This document shows, one piece after another, positions 42,562 through 54,164 of a DNA stretch of 64,000 nt. Source of the stretch: Deinococcales bacterium (GTDB lineage Bacteria; Deinococcota; Deinococci; Deinococcales; JAAFIG01). The notes beneath the pieces are model-generated. The model ran no database searches and was not told the origin of the DNA. It was given only the letters and a program-made list of their open reading frames with translations. Within the stretch, counting starts at the first letter, position 1. Each line of letters begins with the position of its first letter. A program made the position numbers and the translations under genes. The stretch lies in assembly GCA_031414595.1 (NCBI GenBank), contig JANNVX010000033.1, positions 5,276-69,275 on the forward strand, in the 5' to 3' direction.

Positions 42562-43257
42562 GTGACTCTTTTACTGGCTCATCGGGGTGCAAATCGGGTG
42601 CATTTGGAGAATACCATGCCCGCATTTGAGGCAGCATTACAAGCTGGACTGCATGGCATTGAACTGGATGTGCAACGCACTAAAGATGGCGTTTTGGTTG
42701 TGCATCACGGCTTTCATTTACCAGATGGTCGTTTGATTGCATCCCTTGACTTTGCTCAGTTGTGCCTACCAGAGCCGTACACCATTCCAAAACTCGAGGA
42801 AGTGCTGACGTGGGCAAAACAAACTGGCGCATATCTCAATATCGAAATTAAACTCGAGACTTTTGCCACCGACGGACGTGAAAAAGAAGTGGCTGCCTTG
42901 GTCGAACGAAGTGGGATTGGCAATCAAATCATCATCTCGAGTTTTAACCCTGTTTCTTTATGGCGAATTAAACGCCTTGCTCCAGCCCTCGAGACCGCCC
43001 TGCTTTTTTACAACACCAAAAAGAATTGGTTACTTGACCACGGTTACTTAGCTCCTTTTTTGGGAATCAGCGCCTTGCATCCGCACCACAGTCAAGTCAG
43101 CTTAGACATGGTGTTAATGGCACACCGCATGGGTTGGAAAGTCAATGTTTGGACAGTCAACGAACCCGAAATCGTGGCTAAATTGCTCACCTTGGGTGTA
43201 GACGGAATCATTGGCGATGTTCCAAATGTTCTGCTCGAGCGCCATGACACGCGGTAG
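42562..43257 (+). CDS. Glycerophosphodiester phosphodiesterase
   Basis: AHRGA, ENT, IELDVQRTKDG, NIEIK, WTVN, GVDGII. Confidence 0.93.
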   Translation: MTLLLAHRGANRVHLENTMPAFEAALQAGLHGIELDVQRTKDGVLVVHHGFHLPDGRLIASLDFAQLCLPEPYTIPKLEEVLTWAKQTGAYLNIEIKLETFATDGREKEVAALVERSGIGNQIIISSFNPVSLWRIKRLAPALETALLFYNTKKNWLLDHGYLAPFLGISALHPHHSQVSLDMVLMAHRMGWKVNVWTVNEPEIVAKLLTLGVDGIIGDVPNVLLERHDTR

Positions 43258-44299
43258 GCACAAAATTTATTTAGGCATGGCGGCTGGTGTCGGTAAAACC
43301 ATGCGGGCATTAAACGAAATCCGTGATTTACGCGCCGATGGACTAGACGCAATTATTGGTTTCCTCGAGACCCATAAACGCAAAGATACCGTAGCCGCCG
43401 CCCAAGACCTACCGCTTTTTCCTCGGCTCGAGATTTTATATAAAGGTACGACCCAGACCGAACTCGATGTGGCGGGGATTCTCGAGCGCCGCCCCGAATG
43501 GGTGATGGTGGACGAATTAGCGCACAGCAATGTCCCCAATTCCAAGCACCCAAAACGCTACTTGGATGTTGAAGAGATTTTAGAAGCCGGAATCAACGTT
43601 ATCAGTACCCTCAATATCCAACATTTAGAAAGCCTGAACGATGAAGTCGCCCGTCTGACATCGGTGCGGGTGCGTGAGCGCGTGCCAGACCAAGTGGTGC
43701 TTGAAGCCGACGAAGTGGTGATTGTTGATATTTCGCCCGAGGCACTGCGTGACCGCCTTGGGGCTGGAAAAATCTATGCTAAAGAAAAAATTGACCAAGC
43801 CCTCAACAGCTTTTTTACAACCGAAAATCTGGCGGTGCTGCGTGAATTGGCACTGCGACGAACTGCCGATGTGGTCGAAGAAGAACCAATGAACCCAGCC
43901 GAAATTTTAGGGCGTGGGGTCAAAGAACGGATTGTCGTGGCGGTTCGCGCTGAACAACACGATGCTCGTTTGATACGCCGTGGGGCGCGAGTGGTGCAGC
44001 GCTTGAAGGGCGATTTACTGGTGGTGCATATCAAAAATCGTGCTTATAAACAAGTCGAATTTGATGTCCTGAACGAACTCGAGAATCTGGCTAGGGAATT
44101 TAGGGCAACTTGGACAGTTTTAGATGGCACAGACACCGCCTCGAGTCTGGTGGCGTACTTAAAAGCCGAACACGCCACCCAAATTATTATTGGTGAATCG
44201 CACCGCCCAAGGTTTAAGGAAATTATCTCTGGGTCGGTGGTCTTAGAAATTTTGCGCCGCAGCACAGGCATAGATGTGTACATTATTGCCGATGATTGA
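43244..44299 (+). CDS. kdpD: Stand-alone KdpD N-terminal sensor + Usp domain (no TM, no kinase)
   Basis: KIYLGMAAGVGKT, VDELAHSN, STLNIQHLESLND, LRELALR, Usp domain; ends without TM or HisKA. Confidence 0.9.
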   Translation: MTRGRHKIYLGMAAGVGKTMRALNEIRDLRADGLDAIIGFLETHKRKDTVAAAQDLPLFPRLEILYKGTTQTELDVAGILERRPEWVMVDELAHSNVPNSKHPKRYLDVEEILEAGINVISTLNIQHLESLNDEVARLTSVRVRERVPDQVVLEADEVVIVDISPEALRDRLGAGKIYAKEKIDQALNSFFTTENLAVLRELALRRTADVVEEEPMNPAEILGRGVKERIVVAVRAEQHDARLIRRGARVVQRLKGDLLVVHIKNRAYKQVEFDVLNELENLAREFRATWTVLDGTDTASSLVAYLKAEHATQIIIGESHRPRFKEIISGSVVLEILRRSTGIDVYIIADD

Positions 44300-44306
44300 A
44301 CCACCT

Positions 44307-44373
44307 AGAGTCACTTGACCGACCCGCATCACTCGAGTGACCGATGGTGCATATTGAACCAAAAAAATAGACT
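44307..44373 (+). promoter_or_regulatory. Putative response-regulator-dependent promoter (site 1)
   Basis: GTCA-CT-TGACCGA-N15-TGACCGA, then -10 TAGACT 30 nt after the start of the second heptamer. Confidence 0.65.
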
Positions 44374-44379
44374 CTTGGC

Positions 44380-44553
44380 ATGAATCTTGTGCTGCTAACT
44401 TGTGCAACGGTGACCGGTTTTTTCGCCATGTTTGGTTTTATGGCAGGAATTCGTCGGGAAGAATATGAAAAACCAAATCTGACCCAATGGTACATCAGTG
44501 GCTTGGTTGGATTATGGGTTGCTGCAATGGTACTTTCTTTATTCCGAACTTAA
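44380..44553 (+). CDS. Unannotated 57-aa two-TM membrane protein
   Basis: MNLVLLTCATVTGFFAMFGFMAGIRREEYEKPNLTQWYISGLVGLWVAAMVLSLFRT; leaderless TAGACT-N6-ATG. Confidence 0.65.
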   Translation: MNLVLLTCATVTGFFAMFGFMAGIRREEYEKPNLTQWYISGLVGLWVAAMVLSLFRT

Positions 44554-45176
44554 ATCATGCCGCGCCGTAGGGCTTTAACCGCCGCTTGGGTACGGTCAGA
44601 AACACTCAAGCGCAGCAAAATCTCTTCAACATGGGTTTTAACCGTACTTAAACTAATCTCGAGCCGCAAGGCAATATCTTTATTGCCTAGCCCATCGGCA
44701 ATTAAGCGCAGCACCTCGAGTTCTCGGGGCGATAGAACCGCACCGTCTTGGTTGATTGGTGTAATACGGTTTAAGACCACATGGGCAATTTGTGGGTCGA
44801 GGTACGCGCCACCCATTGCCACGGCTTGCACCGCTAAGCGTAAACTCGAGGGGTCGGTGCTTTTTAAGCAGTACGCATTAGCACCACTTGCCAAGGCTGC
44901 CAATACTTCCTGCTCGAGTTGATGGACGGTCAGCATCACGACTTTAAGGTTTGGATACAGGGTTTTTAAGCGTTTGGTGGCTTCGATGCCATCTATGCCC
45001 GGTAAGCCAATATCCATGACCACCACATCGGCTAAAAAGTTCGGGTACTGCTCTAAGGCTTCTTCGCCGCTTCGGGCTTCGCCAACCACTTGTAAATTAG
45101 GATCGCGTTGCAATGCCACCCGCAAGCCATCTCGAGTAAAAGCGTGGTCTTCAACTAAAAACACACTGTAGGTCAT
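44550..45176 (-). CDS. NarL/LuxR-family response regulator
   Basis: LVEDH, VMDIGLPGIDG, LSPRELEVL...TVKTHV...DRTQA. Confidence 0.95.
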   Translation of the reverse strand: MTYSVFLVEDHAFTRDGLRVALQRDPNLQVVGEARSGEEALEQYPNFLADVVVMDIGLPGIDGIEATKRLKTLYPNLKVVMLTVHQLEQEVLAALASGANAYCLKSTDPSSLRLAVQAVAMGGAYLDPQIAHVVLNRITPINQDGAVLSPRELEVLRLIADGLGNKDIALRLEISLSTVKTHVEEILLRLSVSDRTQAAVKALRRGMI

Positions 45177-46642
45177 GCTGCACCCGCCTTGGGTAACTCG
45201 AGCCAGAAAACACTGCCGCCGCCAACCCGAGGATGATAGCCAATCCGTCCGCCGTGGCTTTCGGAAATGCGCTTGGACAAATATAAGCCCAAGCCTGTAC
45301 CGCCACCAGCTTTGCCGCTCGAGAAACGCCCGAATAAACGCGGTTCGAGTTCGACTGGCACACCCTGCCCTCGGTCTGAAACTTCTAGCCGTACTGCATT
45401 TTCGCTTACCCCGAGTTTAATTTCAATTTGGCTACTGGCAGGGCTGTACTTAGCAGCATTCTCGAGTAAATTCTGAATGATTCGTCGTAAATCGGCTGGA
45501 TTACCAAGCACTGTTGTTTCACCGCTTATTTGCCAAATAAAATGGCTTTGTGGCAACCTTGCAGCACTTGACCGCGCTGCATTCTCGAGATTGACCGCTT
45601 GGGGTGTACTCTGAATTTGTTCTGACTCGAGTTTAGCCAACACCAACAACGAATCAGCAAGGGTCAGTAAATCCTCATTGGCTTCGATACCATTGTGGAG
45701 TGTCCGCAAATAGGCTTCGGGCAGTTCACCAAATGCCCCCTCGAGTGCCAAGCGCATATTCATCCCGTTAGCAACCAAAGGCGTGCGGAGGTCGTGGCTA
45801 AAAGCATAGACCAAATCTCTGATAACTTCGGCACGGCGCTCGAGTTCAGTGCGGTTGCGCTGCAAACGCTGGCTCAGTTCGGCACGTTCCAAAGCATCAC
45901 GCAGGGTCGGCAATAAAGACTGCAACGACTCGGTATGATTCTGCGGCTCGAGCAGTGCCAACAGCATTGGCGCATGACCCGCCCATTCAAAACCAGCAAT
46001 TAAGGCATGATTGGCATTTAAGCCAAATTCACTCGGGGTCTGAGCCAGAATTGTTTGCGTTGGCGGCGCACCAAGCAAGCGCGAAGGAATCGGGCTACCA
46101 ATGCTCCACGCGCTTTGGGTAGCTGGAAAAGCTGTTCTCGGTGCAGAAAACTGACTCATCCCAGCACTGGACAGCAGCACCCCTCGAGCTTCAAAAGACG
46201 CTGCCAAAACCTCGGCAGCTTTATGCAGGGCAGCCTCGAGCGAAGGTTCTTGACCAATTGCCGCAATTCGTTCACGGTCACGCTCCCGACGCAAACGCGC
46301 CTCCTCGAGCCGAGCCTTTTCGAGCCGACTCGAGAATTGGGTTAATTGCACCGTCATAAAACCAACCAAAATAAACGAAGCCGCCAGTAAAACACGGTTC
46401 AGCACACTAATCGAATCTACACCACCTTCTGACGAGGCGTTCAGCAGCCCAGCCACGACGTTCATGGCTACTGCCACGACCACCAAAGCAAAGGTAAAAC
46501 GGCGTTTAAGCACCAAACCAGACAAGGCAATTGGGATATTCAGTAAAATTGCGGCAACCAAGCGTTGCGGCGTTAATAAATCCAAGGTAACAATAGCCAC
46601 GAACAACAGCACCGAAGTCAAAACCAGCATGGGGACTTTCAT
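45173..46642 (-). CDS. Membrane sensor histidine kinase
   Basis: N-terminal TMs, SHDLRTPL, NLLENAAKY, DRGQG, GTGLGL. Confidence 0.95.
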   Translation of the reverse strand: MKVPMLVLTSVLLFVAIVTLDLLTPQRLVAAILLNIPIALSGLVLKRRFTFALVVVAVAMNVVAGLLNASSEGGVDSISVLNRVLLAASFILVGFMTVQLTQFSSRLEKARLEEARLRRERDRERIAAIGQEPSLEAALHKAAEVLAASFEARGVLLSSAGMSQFSAPRTAFPATQSAWSIGSPIPSRLLGAPPTQTILAQTPSEFGLNANHALIAGFEWAGHAPMLLALLEPQNHTESLQSLLPTLRDALERAELSQRLQRNRTELERRAEVIRDLVYAFSHDLRTPLVANGMNMRLALEGAFGELPEAYLRTLHNGIEANEDLLTLADSLLVLAKLESEQIQSTPQAVNLENAARSSAARLPQSHFIWQISGETTVLGNPADLRRIIQNLLENAAKYSPASSQIEIKLGVSENAVRLEVSDRGQGVPVELEPRLFGRFSSGKAGGGTGLGLYLSKRISESHGGRIGYHPRVGGGSVFWLELPKAGAA

Positions 46643-46678
46643 CGGGGCTAATTCTAACGGTTAGAAGTGAAAACGGGG

Positions 46679-46694
46679 TCAGTCAGATGACCGA
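46679..46694. promoter_or_regulatory. Putative response-regulator site upstream of the HK-RR operon (site 2)
   Basis: TCAGTCA-GA-TGACCGA 7-2-7 inverted repeat; the minus-strand heptamer starts 29 nt upstream of -10 TAGAAT. Confidence 0.6.
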
Positions 46695-46762
46695 TAGCAG
46701 AATAGTTTTCTCGAGCATAATTTTATCTTTGCAAAAACCAGTTTTTATGGCACAATACGAAC

Positions 46763-47023
46763 ATGAGCCTCGTAGAAATGAAAACTGCTGCACTGCAATT
46801 ACCATTTGCCGAACGAGGTGAATTGGCAAAAGCACTGCTTTTAAGTATGGAGCAACCCTCAGAAGCCGAACTCGAGCGAGCCTTAGAAGCCGCTCAGTAC
46901 GCCCATTTGGACGAAGCGACCCGAAATGCAATTCTTAGTGCGCCGATAACCACTTGGGAAGAGATGATGCAAGATACCGACCCTGACGCACCAGAATTTG
47001 ACATTCCAGAGGATAAGCAATGA
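46763..47023 (+). CDS. Putative antitoxin (addiction-module component-like)
   Basis: ALQLPFAERGELAKALLLS motif; acidic tail; ATGA overlap with the PIN gene. Confidence 0.7.
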   Translation: MSLVEMKTAALQLPFAERGELAKALLLSMEQPSEAELERALEAAQYAHLDEATRNAILSAPITTWEEMMQDTDPDAPEFDIPEDKQ

Positions 47024-47418
47024 CTCCACAAGCTGTTTTAGTGGATACCAATGTGATGAGTTACCTGTTCCGAAAAACACCAAAAGCCGAACCGTTCCGC
47101 CTTTTACTTGAGGGTAGACGAAAAATTATTTCTTTTCAAACTCGAGCCGAATTGATGCTTTGGTCAGCGTACTGGTCAAAGTCCAATCAAGCTAAGTTAG
47201 AACGCTTTCTTGTCAATCAATTTGGTTATTTACCGCACACTGAAGCTGTAAACGTAGCATGGGTAGCAGCAATGAAGAGCGCTAAAAAGAATGGCTACCC
47301 AATTTCTGCGGCGGATGCTTGGATAGCTGCGACTGCTTTAAGCTCTGGGTTATTGCTACTGACGGCTGATAAAAACGATTTTCTGGGCGTGGAAGGTTTG
47401 AAACTGTTAAGCGTGTAA
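47020..47418 (+). CDS. PIN-domain (VapC-like) toxin
   Basis: VLVDTNVMS, AEL, DAWIAATA, LLTADKNDF. Confidence 0.9.
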   Translation: MTPQAVLVDTNVMSYLFRKTPKAEPFRLLLEGRRKIISFQTRAELMLWSAYWSKSNQAKLERFLVNQFGYLPHTEAVNVAWVAAMKSAKKNGYPISAADAWIAATALSSGLLLLTADKNDFLGVEGLKLLSV

Positions 47419-47486
47419 TTTGGTTTTCCGTACTCTAGCGGGAAGTAAGATAAAGTTTTAGATTTTTTTATAAAAAGGAGGGTTTT

Positions 47487-48779
47487 TTGTCTAAAAGCAA
47501 AAATTCTGATATGGTCGAAAATAGAATACAAAACACGGCTTTATCACAACTCAATTGGCAGAACAAACTATCAGGAAAACCCGAATTGGGTATAATCGAA
47601 TACCCACTCTTTTGTGATGCTCAAATTACAGGAGATTTTGTCAGTGGATTAGAACCATATAGCTTCCTAAATACTGTACCTATTACTGACGGAACTAATG
47701 CAGTGGTTGCTCCTTTTGTTTTACGAATTGCAGTCTACTTAGAAGAACACAAACCAAATTTTAGTAAAACTGATGAATCCCTTTACCACGGTGGAACTTT
47801 AGTTGATGAAATAGCTGCTCTAACTTCTGTTGCACTTGGGGTTCGCATTCGTGCTGGTGGGGAGACACGGCGGTTTGAGCTAGGAAAAGACCCATATGGT
47901 CGACCTAGTGCGTGGCATGATATTCCAAGACCTACTGTGCAGATTAAAAGAAATCGACCAATACTACCTTCGGTTTTGGGAGAACATTCAATGAGTAAAT
48001 TAGAAGTATTGAATTTAGTACCTAAAATTGACACAAAGCGATACATTAGTTTGATTCGTGCTTGCAGATTATACCAAGATGCACTTTGGATTGTTGAATC
48101 TGATCCAAATCTTGCATGGCTTATGCTCGTTTCGGCTCTTGAAACCGCAGCCAACGACTTTATGGCATCAGACAATGACTTAACTGAACAATTAAAACTT
48201 TCATTACCTAGACTTGCCTCACTTCTCGAGAAGTTTGGTGGTAATAGTCTTGTTGAAGCAGTAGCAGACGAGATTGCTCATACCTTAAAAGCAACTAAAA
48301 AATTCATTGATTTTACCATGCACTTTCTTCCTAATGAACCAACGGAACGACCTGAAACTGATTGGCTTCGGCTTGATTGGTCAAAGTTGAAGAAAATCTT
48401 GAGCGTGGTTTATGAGTATCGCTCACGTGCTTTACACACTGGACTACCATTTCCTGCTCCAATGCTCCATTCACCGTTTTATTTGCACCCCTCGAAAATA
48501 CCATCAGAAGTACCCCTGATGGGACTAGCAGCACATTCATTGGGAGGTACTTGGATGCCAAAAGATGTACCAATAAACCTGCATTTTTTTCACTATATTA
48601 CACGCGGTGTACTGCTTAGGTGGTGGCAAGAAGAGCTTGCCACCACTGAAAGTATTCAACAAACAACCAATCCTCGACTCGAGTACCCTGTCATGACCAG
48701 CTTAGGAATTGCTGAAAGTGATTGTGACGCTGCAACCAACGAATGGGTTAGCACCAGTAAAATTAGAGTTCTGCCGTAA
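47487..48779 (+). CDS. HEPN-domain protein (ApeA-like), putative defence RNase
   Basis: AWLMLVSALE helix plus YEYRSRALHTG (R-x4-H); AT-richer than neighbours; AAGGAGG SD before TTG. Confidence 0.65.
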   Translation: MSKSKNSDMVENRIQNTALSQLNWQNKLSGKPELGIIEYPLFCDAQITGDFVSGLEPYSFLNTVPITDGTNAVVAPFVLRIAVYLEEHKPNFSKTDESLYHGGTLVDEIAALTSVALGVRIRAGGETRRFELGKDPYGRPSAWHDIPRPTVQIKRNRPILPSVLGEHSMSKLEVLNLVPKIDTKRYISLIRACRLYQDALWIVESDPNLAWLMLVSALETAANDFMASDNDLTEQLKLSLPRLASLLEKFGGNSLVEAVADEIAHTLKATKKFIDFTMHFLPNEPTERPETDWLRLDWSKLKKILSVVYEYRSRALHTGLPFPAPMLHSPFYLHPSKIPSEVPLMGLAAHSLGGTWMPKDVPINLHFFHYITRGVLLRWWQEELATTESIQQTTNPRLEYPVMTSLGIAESDCDAATNEWVSTSKIRVLP

Positions 48780-48819
48780 TTTTTCTGCTCGAGCAATCTG
48801 CTTTGGCTTAAATTCGTTT

Positions 48820-49239
48820 TTATTTTCTTAAATCAAGCTGAGTCGCGCTTGAACCAAACTGTAATCCTTGTACCCTCGAGAAGTGCGTGTCAAAAGTAAA
48901 AAGTGGGTTCTGATACTGGATTGCCATGGCTGCAATCCAAAGGTCGTTGGTTGGTACTATTTGCCCTGCTTGCCCTAGTGCTGCATTGATGCTCGAGTAA
49001 GTAAAAGCGGTTTCTTGGTCTGGGAAAATCAGTTCTACTCGAGGTAAAGCTAAGAATTCCTCGAGCTTAACTAGGTTTTGAGTGTACCGATTACCGCCCC
49101 GAAAGCCACTGAGTAATTCTGCCATGACGATGATTGGCATGGCGATTCTTGGTGATAAACGCAGCACTTCGATACAATCGGGTTGACCTCGAAACAAGTT
49201 GCTGTACGCATTGGTGTCAAAGATTACTCGTGTGTTCAT
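48820..49239 (-). CDS. PIN-domain VapC toxin
   Basis: IFDTNAYS, MAEL, NDLWIAA, TFDTHF. Confidence 0.92.
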   Translation of the reverse strand: MNTRVIFDTNAYSNLFRGQPDCIEVLRLSPRIAMPIIVMAELLSGFRGGNRYTQNLVKLEEFLALPRVELIFPDQETAFTYSSINAALGQAGQIVPTNDLWIAAMAIQYQNPLFTFDTHFSRVQGLQFGSSATQLDLRK

Positions 49240-49466
49240 CGTTCATGAACCGTATCTAATTGTTCAAATTGTTTGGTGTGTAGTAGAAAATCTTGGTATT
49301 CGGTTTCGTTCCAAATTCCAATTAGGAAATCAGCATCATGGTGCAAAATTGGTACAAATGAATTTTGTAATGTTTCAAGGGCTATTTCCTCGGGTTTCAG
49401 ACCACGTTTTGTCGCTTCCTCGAGTAACCGAGCTTCTAATTCTGGATTCTCAAGGGTTAATGTCAT
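49236..49466 (-). CDS. Putative VapB-type antitoxin
   Basis: 76 aa, RHH-like N-terminus, acidic tail, ATGA overlap with VapC. Confidence 0.75.
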   Translation of the reverse strand: MTLTLENPELEARLLEEATKRGLKPEEIALETLQNSFVPILHHDADFLIGIWNETEYQDFLLHTKQFEQLDTVHER

Positions 49467-49498
49467 AGGTCAATTGTACAAGATTTTCTTGGCTTAAT

Positions 49499-49565
49499 TT
49501 CGTCAACTGACCGACCCCTCAAAACCATCTGACCGATGCCCGAATGCCATTCTCGAGCCTAGGCT
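49499..49565 (+). promoter_or_regulatory. Putative kdp promoter/operator (site 3)
   Basis: GTCA-AC-TGACCGA-N15-TGACCGA, then -10 TAGGCT 30 nt after the start of the second heptamer; same spacing as site 1. Confidence 0.7.
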
Positions 49566-49583
49566 TCTAAGCGGAGGTCTTTT

Positions 49584-49667
49584 ATGCTTTGGGTTCTACT
49601 GATTCTGGCGGTTTTGTTGGTTGTCTACTTGTTCTATGCACTCCTTCGACCAGAGGCATTCCAATGA
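49584..49667 (+). CDS. kdpF: K+-transporting ATPase subunit F
   Basis: MLWVLLILAVLLVVYLFYALLRPEAFQ (YL.YALLRPE.F signature); GGAGG SD. Confidence 0.9.
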   Translation: MLWVLLILAVLLVVYLFYALLRPEAFQ

Positions 49668-49741
49668 TTGGCGGCTTGCTGATTTTACTTGGTTTATTTT
49701 TGTTGTGCGCTGCTTTTATTGGCGCTGTTGAGAGGCTCTAA
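49664..49741 (+). CDS. Second small hydrophobic kdp peptide (25 aa)
   Basis: MIGGLLILLGLFLLCAAFIGAVERL; ATGA overlap with kdpF, stop abuts the kdpA ATG. Confidence 0.75.
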   Translation: MIGGLLILLGLFLLCAAFIGAVERL

Positions 49742-51487
49742 ATGGATATTTTCTTTTCGTATGTTCTGCTGTTCGCGCTTGCATTGCCACTTGGTTGGTA
49801 TATGGCACGGGTGTTCTCGAGTCAACCCACTTTTTTAGACCCTATTTTTAATTGGCTCGAGCATCTGATTTTTAGGGTGCTGCGGGTTAATCCGCGTCAG
49901 GGCATGACGTGGCGCGGCTATGCCTTGGCACTGCTTTTTAGCAATATCCCAATTGGTGTATTGGCGTACCTGATTTTTGTTTTTCAGGGCAGTTTGCCAC
50001 TGAACCCAGACAACATTCCAAGTATGTCATGGGATTTAGCCCTGCACACGGCGGCTAGTTTTATCACCAATACCAATCAGCAGCATTATTCTGGTCAAGC
50101 CCAACTCTCGTATTTTTCGCAGTTAATCGCCATTGTCACAATGATGTTTGTGACTCCTGCGGCGGGTTTAGCGGCAATGGTGGCGGTGCTGCGTGGCATT
50201 ACTGGCGGTCTGCGACCTGAAGGCAGCATTGGTGCAATTCCAGTTGCCAATCTGGGTAATTATTATGTGGATGTCACCAAGGCATTAACTCGAGTCTTAC
50301 TGCCATTATCGTTTGTGTTGGCACTGATTTTAACGTGGCAGGGCGTTCCAAGTACCTTCGACGCGGCAAAAACCGCGACCCTTCTCGAGCCAAACGCAGA
50401 AATCACCACTCAGACCATTCCAGTCGGACCTGTCGCGGCAATGGTGGCAATTAAGCAACTTGGTACAAACGGCGGTGGTTGGTATGGACCTAACAGCGCT
50501 GTGCCGCTCGAGAATCCCACGCCGCTCAGTAATTTGTTGCAAATGCTGAGTATTTTGTTGATTCCAATGGCAAGTATTTTTATGGTTGGGTTTTTTACCA
50601 AGCGCCCAAGTTTTGGAATCTCGGTCATGGGAATTATGGTGCTTCTGAGTGCAACCTTAACATTGTTAATTGTGCCAGCCGCATTAGCTCCTAATCCTGC
50701 TTTTACAGGTTTAGCAGTTCAATCCCCAAATCTCGAGGGGATCGAACAGCGTTTTGGTACAACCCTTTCGGCACTCTGGGCAACGTGGACAACCCAAACC
50801 AGCAACGGCAGTGTCAATGCAATGCACGACAGCCTCAATCCACTAGCTGGGCTTGTGCCGCTTGTGGGGATGTGGCTGAACATGACCTTTGGCGGTGACG
50901 GCGTGGGTTTTTTGAACTTTTTTATTTATTTAACGATTGCGGTCTTTATTGCTGGTTTGATGGTCGGGCGTACCCCAGAACTCTTTGGGCGTAAAATCGA
51001 GGCTCGAGAAATGAAATTGGCTTCGATTGGTATTTTGATTGCCCCAGTTTTAATCCTTGTCCCAAGTGCTTTAACCCTTGGAATTCCGAGTTTAACCGCC
51101 AATTCCAACCCTGGTTTTCATGGATTAAGCCAAGTGGTTTATGAATTCTCGAGTGCCACCGCCAATAACGGTTCGGGTTTTGAGGGCTTGGGCGACAACA
51201 CCGTGTGGTGGAACGTCATGACTTCGGTCTGTTTGATTCTGGCACGGTTTATTCCGATGATTGTGCCGCTCGCCATTGCGGGTTTTCTGGGGGCTAAAAA
51301 AGCTGCGCCAGCCAGTGCTGGAACGTTGCGGGTGGACACACCGATTTTTGCGGTCACAACCCTAAGCGTGATTCTGATTGTCGGGGCGTTATCATACTTT
51401 CCCTTAGCGGTCATGGGTCCAATTGCCGAACATCTGACCCTTGGGCAACCCCTGCCGCAACCTGTTCCACTTGAAGGTGTGAAATAA
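49742..51487 (+). CDS. kdpA: K+-transporting ATPase subunit A
   Basis: [41 protein letters not shown]. Confidence 0.97.
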
Positions 51488-53529
51488 TGCAACAAACTGT
51501 TAAGAATCGCCGTGCTGCGGCAATTATTCCCGAAGGTAAACTTGGTGGCTTAATTGTTGAAAGCGCCAAAAAACTCAATCCGATTTATTTAGCCAAAAAC
51601 CCTGTGATGTTTATTGTGCTGATTGGCACAGCCGTGACGCTTTTTCTAACCCTCGAGAAATTATTTTCAAGTCAAACTTTTGCCTACGAATTGGTCATCA
51701 CGGTGCTATTGTTGCTAACCGTACTTTTTGCCACTTTTGCCGAAAGTGTCGCCGAGGCTCGGGGTAAAGCCCAAGCTGCCAGTTTGCGTTCGGCTCGAGC
51801 CGACACGCCAGCCAATCGGTTGCTGGGCAACGGACAAACCGAGGTTATCTCGAGTACCAGCTTAAAACAAAACGATTTGGTGCTGGTCTCTGTCGGGCAA
51901 CTGATTCCAGCCGACGGCGAGATTGTGACTGGTCTAGCAATGGTGGACGAAAGCGCCATCACGGGCGAATCTGCGCCTGTACTGCGTGAAGCTGGCGGTG
52001 ATTTCTCGAGCGTGACAGGTGGAACAAAAGTCATTTCTGACCAGATTACGGTTAAAATTACCAACTTGCCCGGCGAGAGTTTTTTAGATCGCATGATTGC
52101 TTTGGTCGAGGGCGCAAACCGCCAAAAAACCCCAAACGAAATTGCACTGGGGATACTGCTGGCGGGTTTTACCCTAATTTTTGTGCTGGTGGTCGTTACC
52201 CTGCTGCCGTTAGCAGCTTTTATTGGTGTACGGCTCGAGGTCACAACACTGGTGGCGCTGTTGGTTTGCTTGATTCCGACTACAATTGGTGGTTTATTAC
52301 CCGCGATTGGTATTGCTGGTATGGACAGGGCGCTGCGTGCCAATATCATTGCTAAGTCTGGGCGAGCCGTCGAAGTGGCTGGCGACATTGACACCTTACT
52401 TTTAGATAAGACTGGCACGATTACCCTTGGCAACCGCCAAGCGACGGCATTTTTACCTGTGTCGGGCGTAACCGAAGAGCGCCTCGCTAAAGCCGCTCAT
52501 TTATCCAGTTTAGCCGATAACACCCCCGAAGGAAAAAGCATTGTCGAACTAGCCATTCTGCGTGGCTCGAGGGTAGATGCTGGACTGCGCGATGTGGCAG
52601 AGTTTATTGAATTTACGGCGCAGACCCGCATGAGTGGGGTCAACATCCCAGATGGTAAACAAATTCGTAAAGGCGCACCAGACCGCATGATGCGCCTCGT
52701 CAAAGATAGTTTTCATACTGTTCCCAAAGAACTGCAAGATGATGTCGAAAAAGTGGCTCGAGGTGGTGGTACACCCTTAATTGTTATCGAGGACGGCGAA
52801 GCGCTTGGCGTGGTGGCACTCTCGGACATTGTTAAAAAAGGCATTAAAGAACGCTTTGCCCAGTTGCGTGCCATGGGTTTACGCACCGTCATGATTACCG
52901 GCGATAACCCACTGACCGCTAAAGCGATTGCCGAAGAAGCTGGCGTAGACGATTTTTTAGCCGAAGCCACACCCGAAGATAAAATGCGCCTGATTAAAGC
53001 CGAGCAGCAAAAAGGCAAATTGGTGGCGATGATGGGCGACGGCACAAACGACGCGCCCGCCCTTGCTCAAGCCGACGTTGGGCTTGCCATGAACAGTGGC
53101 ACACAAGCTGCTAAAGAAGCCGGCAACATGGTGGATTTGGATTCTGACCCGACCAAACTGCTCGAGGTTGTGGAAATCGGTAAGCAGCTTTTAATCACAA
53201 GAGGCGCATTAACCACTTTTAGCATTGCCAACGATGTCGCCAAGTATTTTGCGATTATTCCCGCGATGTTTGCTGGCACAATTCCAGCCATGAAAGCCCT
53301 TGATATTATGCAACTCTCGAGTCCAGAAAGTGCGATTCTAAGCGCCGTGATTTTTAATGCGGCTGTCATTCCACTGCTGATTCCAGTTGCCCTGCGTGGT
53401 GTCTCGTACCGCCCCATGAGCGCCGATGCGATTCTGACCCGCAACTTACTGATTTACGGACTTGGCGGCGTGATTGTGCCATTTATTGGTATCAAAGCCA
53501 TAGATTTATTGGTTGGATTGGTTTTTTAA
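51487..53529 (+). CDS. kdpB: K+-transporting ATPase subunit B
   Basis: [29 protein letters not shown]. Confidence 0.97.
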
Positions 53530-53537
53530 GGAGATTT

Positions 53538-54164
53538 ATGCGGAATATCAAAATGCTAGAACCAGAACTCGACTCGAGGGGCGGTAACATTGGTACTTGG
53601 CTGGGCTTTACAATCATCATGACGATTTTCTTTGGTTTGATTTACCCAGTGGTCACAACATTTCTTGGACAGATACTTTTCCCACTTCAAGCCCGTGGTT
53701 CTTTGCTCGAGAAGAACGGTACTGTGGTTGGCTCGAGCCTGATTGGGCAATCTTTTAGCGGCGCAAAATACTTTATTGGGCGACCGTCAAGCGCTGGTAA
53801 GGGATACGACCCAACCAGTGCCAGTGGCAGTAACTTAGCCGTTAGCAATCCAGCTTTACGCCAACGCGCCACAGCTACTGCCCAAGAAATTGCGGTTCGA
53901 GAAGACATACAACTCGAGCAAATTCCAATGGATTTAATCACCGCCAGTGGTTCAGGTTTAGACCCGCACATCAGTACAGCAGCCGCCGAAATTCAAATTA
54001 CTCGAGTTGCCAAGGCGCGTGGTATAAGCCAAAACTTGGTGCGTCAGGCAGTCCAAAAACAAACCGAACAGCCCTTGTGGGGGGTGTTCGGTTTGGCTCG
54101 AGTTAATGTGCTTAAACTCAATTTAGAACTTGATAGACTATCGCCTACCAAGTCTGGGACGTAA
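53538..54164 (+). CDS. kdpC: K+-transporting ATPase subunit C
   Basis: GSSLIGQSF, GRPS, TASGSGLDPHIS, VNVLKLNL. Confidence 0.96.
   Translation: MRNIKMLEPELDSRGGNIGTWLGFTIIMTIFFGLIYPVVTTFLGQILFPLQARGSLLEKNGTVVGSSLIGQSFSGAKYFIGRPSSAGKGYDPTSASGSNLAVSNPALRQRATATAQEIAVREDIQLEQIPMDLITASGSGLDPHISTAAAEIQITRVAKARGISQNLVRQAVQKQTEQPLWGVFGLARVNVLKLNLELDRLSPTKSGT

Follow-up and report, generated by a model that had tools for sequence, protein, structure and literature searches.

How is a kdp potassium pump controlled where the neighbourhood of its genes lacks kdpE and kdpD is reduced to its cytoplasmic part? The question is raised by a stretch of 64,000 nucleotides (nt) from a Deinococcales bacterium (assembly GCA_031414595.1, contig JANNVX010000033.1, positions 5,276 to 69,275, forward strand), here called the window, which carries kdpF, kdpA, kdpB and kdpC, a short kdpD (kdpD-N), and the genes of a membrane histidine kinase and a NarL/FixJ-type response regulator. 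An original prediction, made from the letters of the window, held that this regulator replaces KdpE by way of a shared operator. The reading that we regard as probable is a kdp regulon of the Deinococcota type, in which the kinase and the NarL-type regulator act through an operator of two inverted heptamers 2 nt apart (7-2-7), and KdpD-N is a separate brake acting on Ser162 of KdpB. The system itself is already known in kind, as the split-KdpD/NarL-type kdp regulon of Deinococcota: a split KdpD together with a separate pair of kinase and regulator next to kdp, the novelty of which the original prediction had implied, was described for Deinococcus radiodurans in 2017, according to the available part of that paper (PMC5716572). 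New are the operator, the sequence of which appears to track one residue of the recognition helix and which is undescribed within our literature search, a putative third target under the same operator, encoding a membrane protein of 57 amino acids (aa; small57) restricted to an uncultured Deinococcales family, and a toxin-antitoxin cassette that in this genome lies between kdpF and the kinase operon.

Regulator, kinase and operator

The regulator matches Pfam Response_reg (PF00072, 1.5e-25) and GerE (PF00196, 5e-19), and its D55 is invariant in the alignment. It combines a receiver with the conserved Asp and a C-terminal GerE/LuxR helix-turn-helix, as in the NarL/FixJ type, and carries this GerE domain instead of the Trans_reg_C winged helix of a KdpE. 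Over 98% of its length it is 58.8% identical to DR_B0081, the regulator on the MP1 megaplasmid of D. radiodurans. An OmpR-type kdpE had been predicted to be absent from the window, and indeed no Trans_reg_C domain occurs on its contig, with 20 matches elsewhere in the genome (4.49-Mb assembly, 94% complete). The reduction of kdpD to its KdpD and Usp parts was likewise borne out, Pfam showing just these two domains, and the domain search of the whole genome returned a single KdpD domain.

Residues 7-486 of the kinase align to positions 407-883 of the 895 positions of the NCBIfam KdpD model (E 1.4e-27), the only one among the listed models that spans the whole length of the protein. By this alignment the kinase supplies the C-terminal half that KdpD-N lacks, and the two add up to one KdpD of the E. 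coli type. Its AlphaFold model (mean pLDDT 78) has four N-terminal helices (3-23, 27-44, 47-72 and 77-131), a small alpha/beta domain at about 135-236 and then the dimerization and histidine phosphotransfer/catalytic (DHp-CA) core. At the GAF position no Pfam GAF match was obtained even at E 5, and the best Foldseek matches cover the DHp-CA core only, the fold of which corresponds to HK853-type kinases (E ~1e-14); HATPase_c reaches 98.5 bits in Pfam, and the H-box is of the HisKA type. The adjacency of kinase and NarL-type regulator to kdpD-N and the domains assigned to them were predicted correctly, with the correction that both genes lie on the minus strand and that the kinase is itself equivalent to KdpD's C-terminal half.

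The composite element GTCA-N2-TGACCGA-N15-TGACCGA, predicted upstream of a small open reading frame (ORF; here small57) and of kdpF, was recovered at 44310-44344 and 49502-49536; these are the two matches in the window at no more than 2 mismatches, with none in 100 shuffles. The heptamer TGACCGA has 15 copies in the window (mean of 100 shuffles 5.36, maximum 11), and TGACCGA-N15-TGACCGA has 2 copies in the entire assembly, both at the kdp locus. GTCA-N2-TGACCGA occurs in exact form five times in the assembly, three times at the kdp locus and twice within long ORFs; a palindrome with 1 mismatch on another contig also falls inside a long ORF. At small57 the left half (44307-13) is followed by TGACCGA (44316-22), N15, TGACCGA (44338-44) and the -10 hexamer TAGACT (44368-73), which starts 30 nt past the heptamer start at 44338 and leaves 6 nt to the ATG. 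At kdpF the corresponding parts are the left half (49499-505), TGACCGA (49508-14), N15, TGACCGA (49530-36) and TAGGCT (49560-65), again 30 nt past the heptamer start (49530), with a leader containing GGAGG after the -10. The predicted spacing is exact at both sites.

The kinase promoter, on the minus strand, has the palindrome TCAGTCA-GA-TGACCGA (46679-46694), one mismatch from perfect, and TAGAAT (46656-46651) at the predicted 29 nt from the heptamer start (46685), 8 nt before the ATG (46642). Here the site has the 7-2-7 form ascribed to it, and relatives carry perfect 7-2-7 palindromes; the left halves of the two other sites are degenerate and agree with TCGGTCA at only 4/7 positions (44307) and 5/7 positions (49499). 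A scan with the sigma-70 consensus calls none of the three promoters, which have no -35 hexamer; this outcome is expected if an activator replaces the -35. The short distance from -10 to start codon predicts leaderless mRNA for the kinase operon and small57, and both transcripts are, from their sequence, probably leaderless.

A motif search upstream of kdp orthologues in Deinococcota had been proposed as a check of the prediction, and its outcome was positive. The set comprised 60 loci, among them the window, in which the identity of the regulator is 55% or more; eight were dropped (upstream region cut off in four, no kinase match in one, kinase not called adjacent in three); two of the last three, L059 and L062, do carry the palindrome. 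The core RGYCA-N2-TGRCY is present at most 450 nt upstream of the kinase in 40/52 loci, against 35 core matches in the 800,675 nt of the remainder of the same loci, or 0.021 per 480 nt. Within the uncultured Deinococcales family, a common plan is followed by 18 of the 22 kinase and small-ORF promoters for which sufficient sequence exists, i.e. heptamer, 29-33 nt, TAnnnT, 5-8 nt and start codon, and eight of the ten small-ORF promoters have spacings of exactly 30 nt and 6 nt. In 18.6 kb of the D. radiodurans R1 megaplasmid only two core matches occur, 21 bp apart, and both fall between kdpB and the start of the kinase as re-annotated, the proximal heptamer standing 30 nt before TACGCT and the ATG 7 nt after TACGCT. 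The published "38-bp intergenic region" of R1 MP1 (locus L137, 7303-7443) reflects an older kinase start; the RefSeq start lies about 100 nt further downstream. With the RefSeq start the palindromes are intergenic and the kinase mRNA is probably leaderless.

The half-site varies with the regulator. Regulators with a K-T-H recognition helix (uncultured Deinococcales family, Meiothermus) go with TCRGYCA-N2-TGACYGA in each of the 16 loci where a palindrome was detected; at its centre the left half has T in 15 loci and C in L063. For K-L-H/Y regulators, which most Deinococcus possess, the counterpart is mostly YTGGCCA-N2-TGGCCAR, K-F-H regulators have CTGGYCA-N2-TGRCCRG (CTGGTCA in 3/4 loci, CTGGCCA in L078), and the sole K-A-H regulator has ATGGTCA-N2-TGACCAA. 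The varying residue, which tracks the half-site, directly follows the conserved V-K in the predicted recognition helix, a position that presumably matches a base-contacting residue of NarL. The operator thus appears to generalise across the phylum, with covariation of protein and DNA.

As its homology suggests, the kinase would sense K+ limitation and phosphorylate the NarL-type regulator. The phosphorylated regulator would then bind tandem 7-2-7 sites, one with the consensus TCGGTCA-N2-TGACCGA and a second, 22 bp downstream, that follows the consensus in its promoter-proximal half only. The proximal heptamer would occupy the -35 position, 29-30 nt before a TAnnnT -10, and since the promoters have no -35 hexamer, the regulator is probably an activator of class-II type. 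Its predicted targets are three: kdpF-(small ORF)-kdpABC, the kinase-regulator operon itself (positive autoregulation) and the small57 gene. Very probably the regulator is a functional stand-in for KdpE that activates kdp and its own operon through the TGACCGA sites, as had been predicted; deletion of its orthologue DR_B0081 abolishes KdpB induction at low K+ in D. radiodurans, where the regulator is itself induced, according to the available text of Dani 2017 (PMC5716572).

KdpD-N and competing readings

KdpD-N matches Pfam KdpD (PF02702, 1.3e-86) and Usp (PF00582, 8.2e-06, 26.9 bits against a cut-off of 24) and aligns over 11-361 with NCBIfam KdpD_non_kinase (2.2e-116), yet at 389 bits against a cut-off of 550. 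It possesses the Walker A motif GVGKT and the Walker B motif VDE. Its longest ORF runs from a TTG at 43211, and the 3' end of the GDPD gene upstream overlaps the ATG at 43244. The protein has the marks of a split KdpD: a KdpD domain with Walker motifs, Usp, the end of the chain, and a separate four-helix kinase homologous to the C-terminal half of KdpD. KdpB has TGES at 159-162, its last residue being Ser162, and the genome encodes one diadenylate cyclase (DAC) domain. According to the available part of Silberberg 2024 (PMC11018627), the KdpD domain acts as an atypical serine kinase, inhibiting KdpFABC through phosphorylation of KdpB Ser162; the two-domain KdpD/Usp of Deinococcus geothermalis does the same when stimulated by cyclic di-AMP (c-di-AMP), not by K+, and in species of the D. 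radiodurans type a two-component system apart from it takes care of transcription, the separate chains being two independent activities. Given Ser162, the Walker motifs, the diadenylate cyclase and these findings, a post-translational brake on the pump is more likely for KdpD-N, by analogy, than an input to the kinase. Following the characterised Deinococcus homologue, KdpD-N/Usp would most likely give no input to the kinase and would rather be a c-di-AMP-controlled atypical serine kinase that shuts the pump through KdpB Ser162 when K+ is plentiful. The pump would then be under two independent layers of control, a transcriptional one by the kinase and the NarL-type regulator and a post-translational one by KdpD-N on KdpB.

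The original prediction had the free KdpD-Usp protein signal to the kinase in trans, a claim that found no support in the analysis. As an alternative, KdpD-N/Usp may be an input module for the membrane kinase, alone or alongside an action on KdpB; we consider this unlikely, although the two chains together make a complete KdpD of the E. coli type and kdpD-N stays beside the kinase-regulator pair in the uncultured Deinococcales family. A separately expressed N-terminal domain of E. coli KdpD is also said to complement a truncated KdpD (reportedly Heermann and co-workers, in 2000). The input-module reading is opposed by the sole biochemistry of a Deinococcus KdpD/Usp, which is kinase activity on KdpB, and by the interpretation of separate chains as two independent activities in the same source (PMC11018627, available part).

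Much less probable is that the heptamers are bound by a different factor, or that the adjacent regulator represses from them. The proximal site does overlap the -35 position and would be compatible with repression, but the motif covaries with the recognition helix of the adjacent regulator, the promoters have no -35 hexamer and escape the sigma-70 consensus scan, and the D. radiodurans regulator mutant fails to induce kdp (PMC5716572, available part). That the repeated element is a mere remnant of a duplication accompanying the cassette insertion, without regulatory role, is hardly credible: the similarity of the stretch right of the kinase palindrome to the proximal kdpF promoter (26/38 identical) does imply that a duplication occurred, but the same sites are conserved in insertion-free genomes and in other genera and families, and the small57 promoter carries them independently.

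Several points weigh against an operator-based regulon with KdpD-N as its separate brake. The core palindrome is missing in 12/52 loci (L068, L071, L073, L075, L080, L081, L082, L087, L100, L105, L109 and L112), the core was widened to R/Y after the Deinococcus sites had been seen, and the related genomes are not independent. Near-matches are not enriched genome-wide, with 24 at no more than 2 mismatches against 49 in the reversed control, and 78 against 132, so that any regulon must be tiny; in the genome-wide search for further members, near-matches elsewhere were intragenic and no commoner than in the control, and the regulon in the window's genome, if the element is an operator, would consist of the three promoters described. 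The HisKA match of the kinase, at 25.0 bits, stays below the Pfam cut-off of 26.9. DR_B0081 also shifts a 38-bp T-rich probe (dissociation constant 3.6 uM, no cooperativity; PMC5716572, available part); comparison of the primers with the R1 sequence places this probe next to the palindromes without including them, and the long probe that is positive in the electrophoretic mobility shift assay (EMSA) includes both. As to KdpD-N, its gene lies outside the kdp operon and has no operator in the uncultured Deinococcales family, unlike in Deinococcus, so that its regulation, and possibly its role, may differ, and of the Trp/Arg adenine pair described in print the Trp was not located in its sequence.

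Locus layout, the 57-aa protein and the inserted cassette

The features of the locus are listed in Table 1. The common order in Deinococcota is (kdpF-)kdpA-kdpB-kdpC-kdpD-N, divergent from kinase-regulator, and is found in Deinococcus, Meiothermus/Allomeiothermus, Truepera and the uncultured Deinococcales family. In the latter, kdpD-N is relocated to the far side of the regulator, with the small ORF in between. The window's genus additionally has the toxin-antitoxin cassette between kinase and kdpF, whereas relatives outside the genus are directly divergent. Family members without the cassette have one common intergenic region for the kinase and kdpF promoters, in the order TCRGTCA-N2-TGACYGA, 15 nt, TGACCGA, about 23 nt and the kdpF -10, the palindrome serving the kinase promoter in the opposite direction.

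Table 1. Coordinates of the kdp region in the window
Feature	Position	Strand	Basis or remark
kdpD-N	43244..44299	+	KdpD and Usp domains only; 362 aa; no membrane or kinase part
small57 operator and promoter	44307..44373	+	motif search and spacing reading
small57, two-helix membrane protein of 57 aa	44380..44553	+	without Pfam or NCBIfam match
NarL/FixJ-type response regulator	44550..45176	-	Pfam Response_reg and GerE
membrane histidine kinase, by alignment C-terminal half of KdpD	45173..46642	-	NCBIfam KdpD model
kinase-regulator operon, operator and promoter	46651..46694	-	palindrome 46679-46694
inserted toxin-antitoxin cassette, probably outside the regulon	46763..49466	mixed	Pfam PIN matches
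antitoxin-like ORF (cassette)	46763-47023		
PIN (cassette)	47020-47418		Pfam PIN
430-aa ORF (cassette)	47487-48779	+	no Pfam match
PIN (cassette)	48820-49239	-	Pfam PIN
76-aa ORF (cassette)	49236-49466	-	
kdpF operator and promoter	49499..49565	+	motif search and spacing reading
kdpF	49584-49667	+	small-ORF screen
25-aa hydrophobic ORF	49664-49741	+	small-ORF screen
kdpA	49742-51487	+	NCBIfam kdpA above cut-off
kdpB	51487-53529	+	NCBIfam kdpB above cut-off; TGES at 159-162, Ser162
kdpC	53538-54164	+	NCBIfam kdpC above cut-off

In 12/15 family loci small57 is kept, and its G, F, W, S, G, V and L positions do not vary there. Among 1.84 billion proteins a profile search yielded 12 representatives, and tblastn gave no match at loci other than those of the uncultured Deinococcales family. 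The protein has no Pfam or NCBIfam match, a search for homologous proteins was empty, and the protein atlas returned unnamed clusters only (0.91). Its gene converges on that of the regulator, the stop codons overlapping at 44550-44553, and several family members are alike in this (distance -1). No terminator-like site between the two genes was called in the promoter and terminator scan, and with a convergent overlap of this kind the small57 and regulator transcripts should overlap. Small57, which in every case would be driven by the regulator's operator, might be a feedback element induced by K+ limitation, either as a micro-protein with the pump or the kinase as its target (in the latter case resembling MgrB and PhoQ), or as an antisense transcript into the kinase-regulator operon, and paralogous sets next to an APC-type permease might represent a second use of the module; we offer this tentatively and think it rather doubtful.

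Such a paralogous set occurs in relatives (L046-L049, L054; G012, G016-G018, G007). Besides a small ORF it comprises a kinase with 43-46% identity and a regulator with 67-75% identity, the recognition helix of which is unchanged. The set carries a perfect TCGGTCA-N2-TGACCGA and stands divergent to a permease of APC type with 642-662 aa. No KdpD domain was found in G012, G017 and G018, which are 79-87% complete. The APC-type permease was considered as a target in the window's genome as well and was rejected, its orthologue being present without operator or paralogous kinase; the permease has no sequence relative in the PDB.

The cassette, of about 2.7 kb, comprises two PIN toxin-antitoxin pairs and the 430-aa ORF. 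It has a promoter of its own, TTGCAA-N16-CACAAT, 6 nt before the ATG of the antitoxin-like ORF. The kdpF-promoter-like stretch described above lies between this promoter and the kinase palindrome, within the region 46688-46762, has TAATTT 30 nt from the heptamer start, and may be a relic or a duplicate promoter. The 25-aa hydrophobic ORF between kdpF and kdpA overlaps the kdpF stop (ATGA) and may be an unannotated Kdp subunit; by a crude screen, 20/28 Deinococcota loci have two such small ORFs ahead of kdpA, in reversed order in the Deinococcus loci with kdpBAC order. The commonest hexamer of the assembly is CTCGAG (23,235 copies, 21x the mean hexamer count), which in the window occurs for example at 44331-44336, 46710-46715 and 49552-49557; its density in kdp-region loci is 5.96 per kb in the uncultured Deinococcales family, 2.66 in Meiothermus, 2.17 in Truepera and 0.02 in Deinococcus.

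Comparison with known systems

E. coli KdpD/KdpE has the same pump genes and, when the two chains of the window are combined, the same sensor domains. Unlike in E. coli, the sensor of the window is split into two chains, and its regulator has a GerE helix-turn-helix, not an OmpR winged helix. NarL of E. coli, a dimer of which binds through the GerE-type domain, recognises 7-2-7 sites of inverted heptamers 2 bp apart; the heptamer sequence of the window differs, and its kinase has a HisKA-type H-box, not the HisKA_3 usual for NarL partners. The predicted operator is an inverted heptamer pair, whereas that of E. coli KdpE consists of AT-rich direct repeats (PMC3264566, available part).

A pairing similar to that of the window, kinase with NarL-type regulator in a system with a truncated KdpD, exists by description in Synechocystis as Hik20-Rre19. 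This pair is said to control kdp, reportedly from work of Nanatani and co-workers in 2015. Hik20 is a KdpD-like kinase and Rre19 a regulator of the NarL subfamily, according to the available part of PMC7090099. The one cyanobacterial match examined, a regulator on an Oscillatoria plasmid, is 41.5% identical and not beside kdp.

KdpD/Usp of D. geothermalis is the same two-domain protein, and its target Ser162 in TGES as well as a diadenylate cyclase are present in the window's genome. The kdpD-N of the window is not co-transcribed with the pump genes, and its activity and c-di-AMP binding are predicted from the genes.

One of the closest counterparts is that of D. radiodurans, in which kdpBAC-kdpD-N (DR_B0083-88) is divergent from the sensor kinase DR_B0082 ("C-terminal half of E. 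coli kdpD") and the regulator DR_B0081 (Dani 2017, PMC5716572, available part). Both share the truncated KdpD-N, the separate KdpD-C-like kinase and a regulator of about 209 aa. An orthologous pair divergent from kdp is found in Deinococcus, Meiothermus, Truepera and the uncultured Deinococcales family; relatives of the window have this divergent layout, and the window's own adjacency is broken by the cassette. Unlike in D. radiodurans, kdpD-N lies downstream of the regulator and not at the end of the kdp operon, and the window has the gene of the 57-aa membrane protein, a family-specific micro-protein that would be added to the regulon, and a 2.8-kb toxin-antitoxin cassette between kinase and kdpF. 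The half-site is TGACCGA in the window and TGGCCAA/G in D. radiodurans.

DR_B0081 shifts a long intergenic probe, and a T-rich 38-bp site was proposed for it in 2017; in the available text of that paper (PMC5716572) no palindrome is mentioned, nor is the NarL family. The literature search, which left subscription journals largely uncovered, found no paper describing the operator. The Deinococcus kdp regulator has been studied at the bench, yet its binding site was guessed as a T-rich stretch by analogy with KdpE. The present comparison yields a concrete predicted operator, tandem 7-2-7 sites that would replace the -35, and a naturally occurring series of specificities, the half-site varying with one residue of the recognition helix; both are directly testable in D. 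radiodurans.

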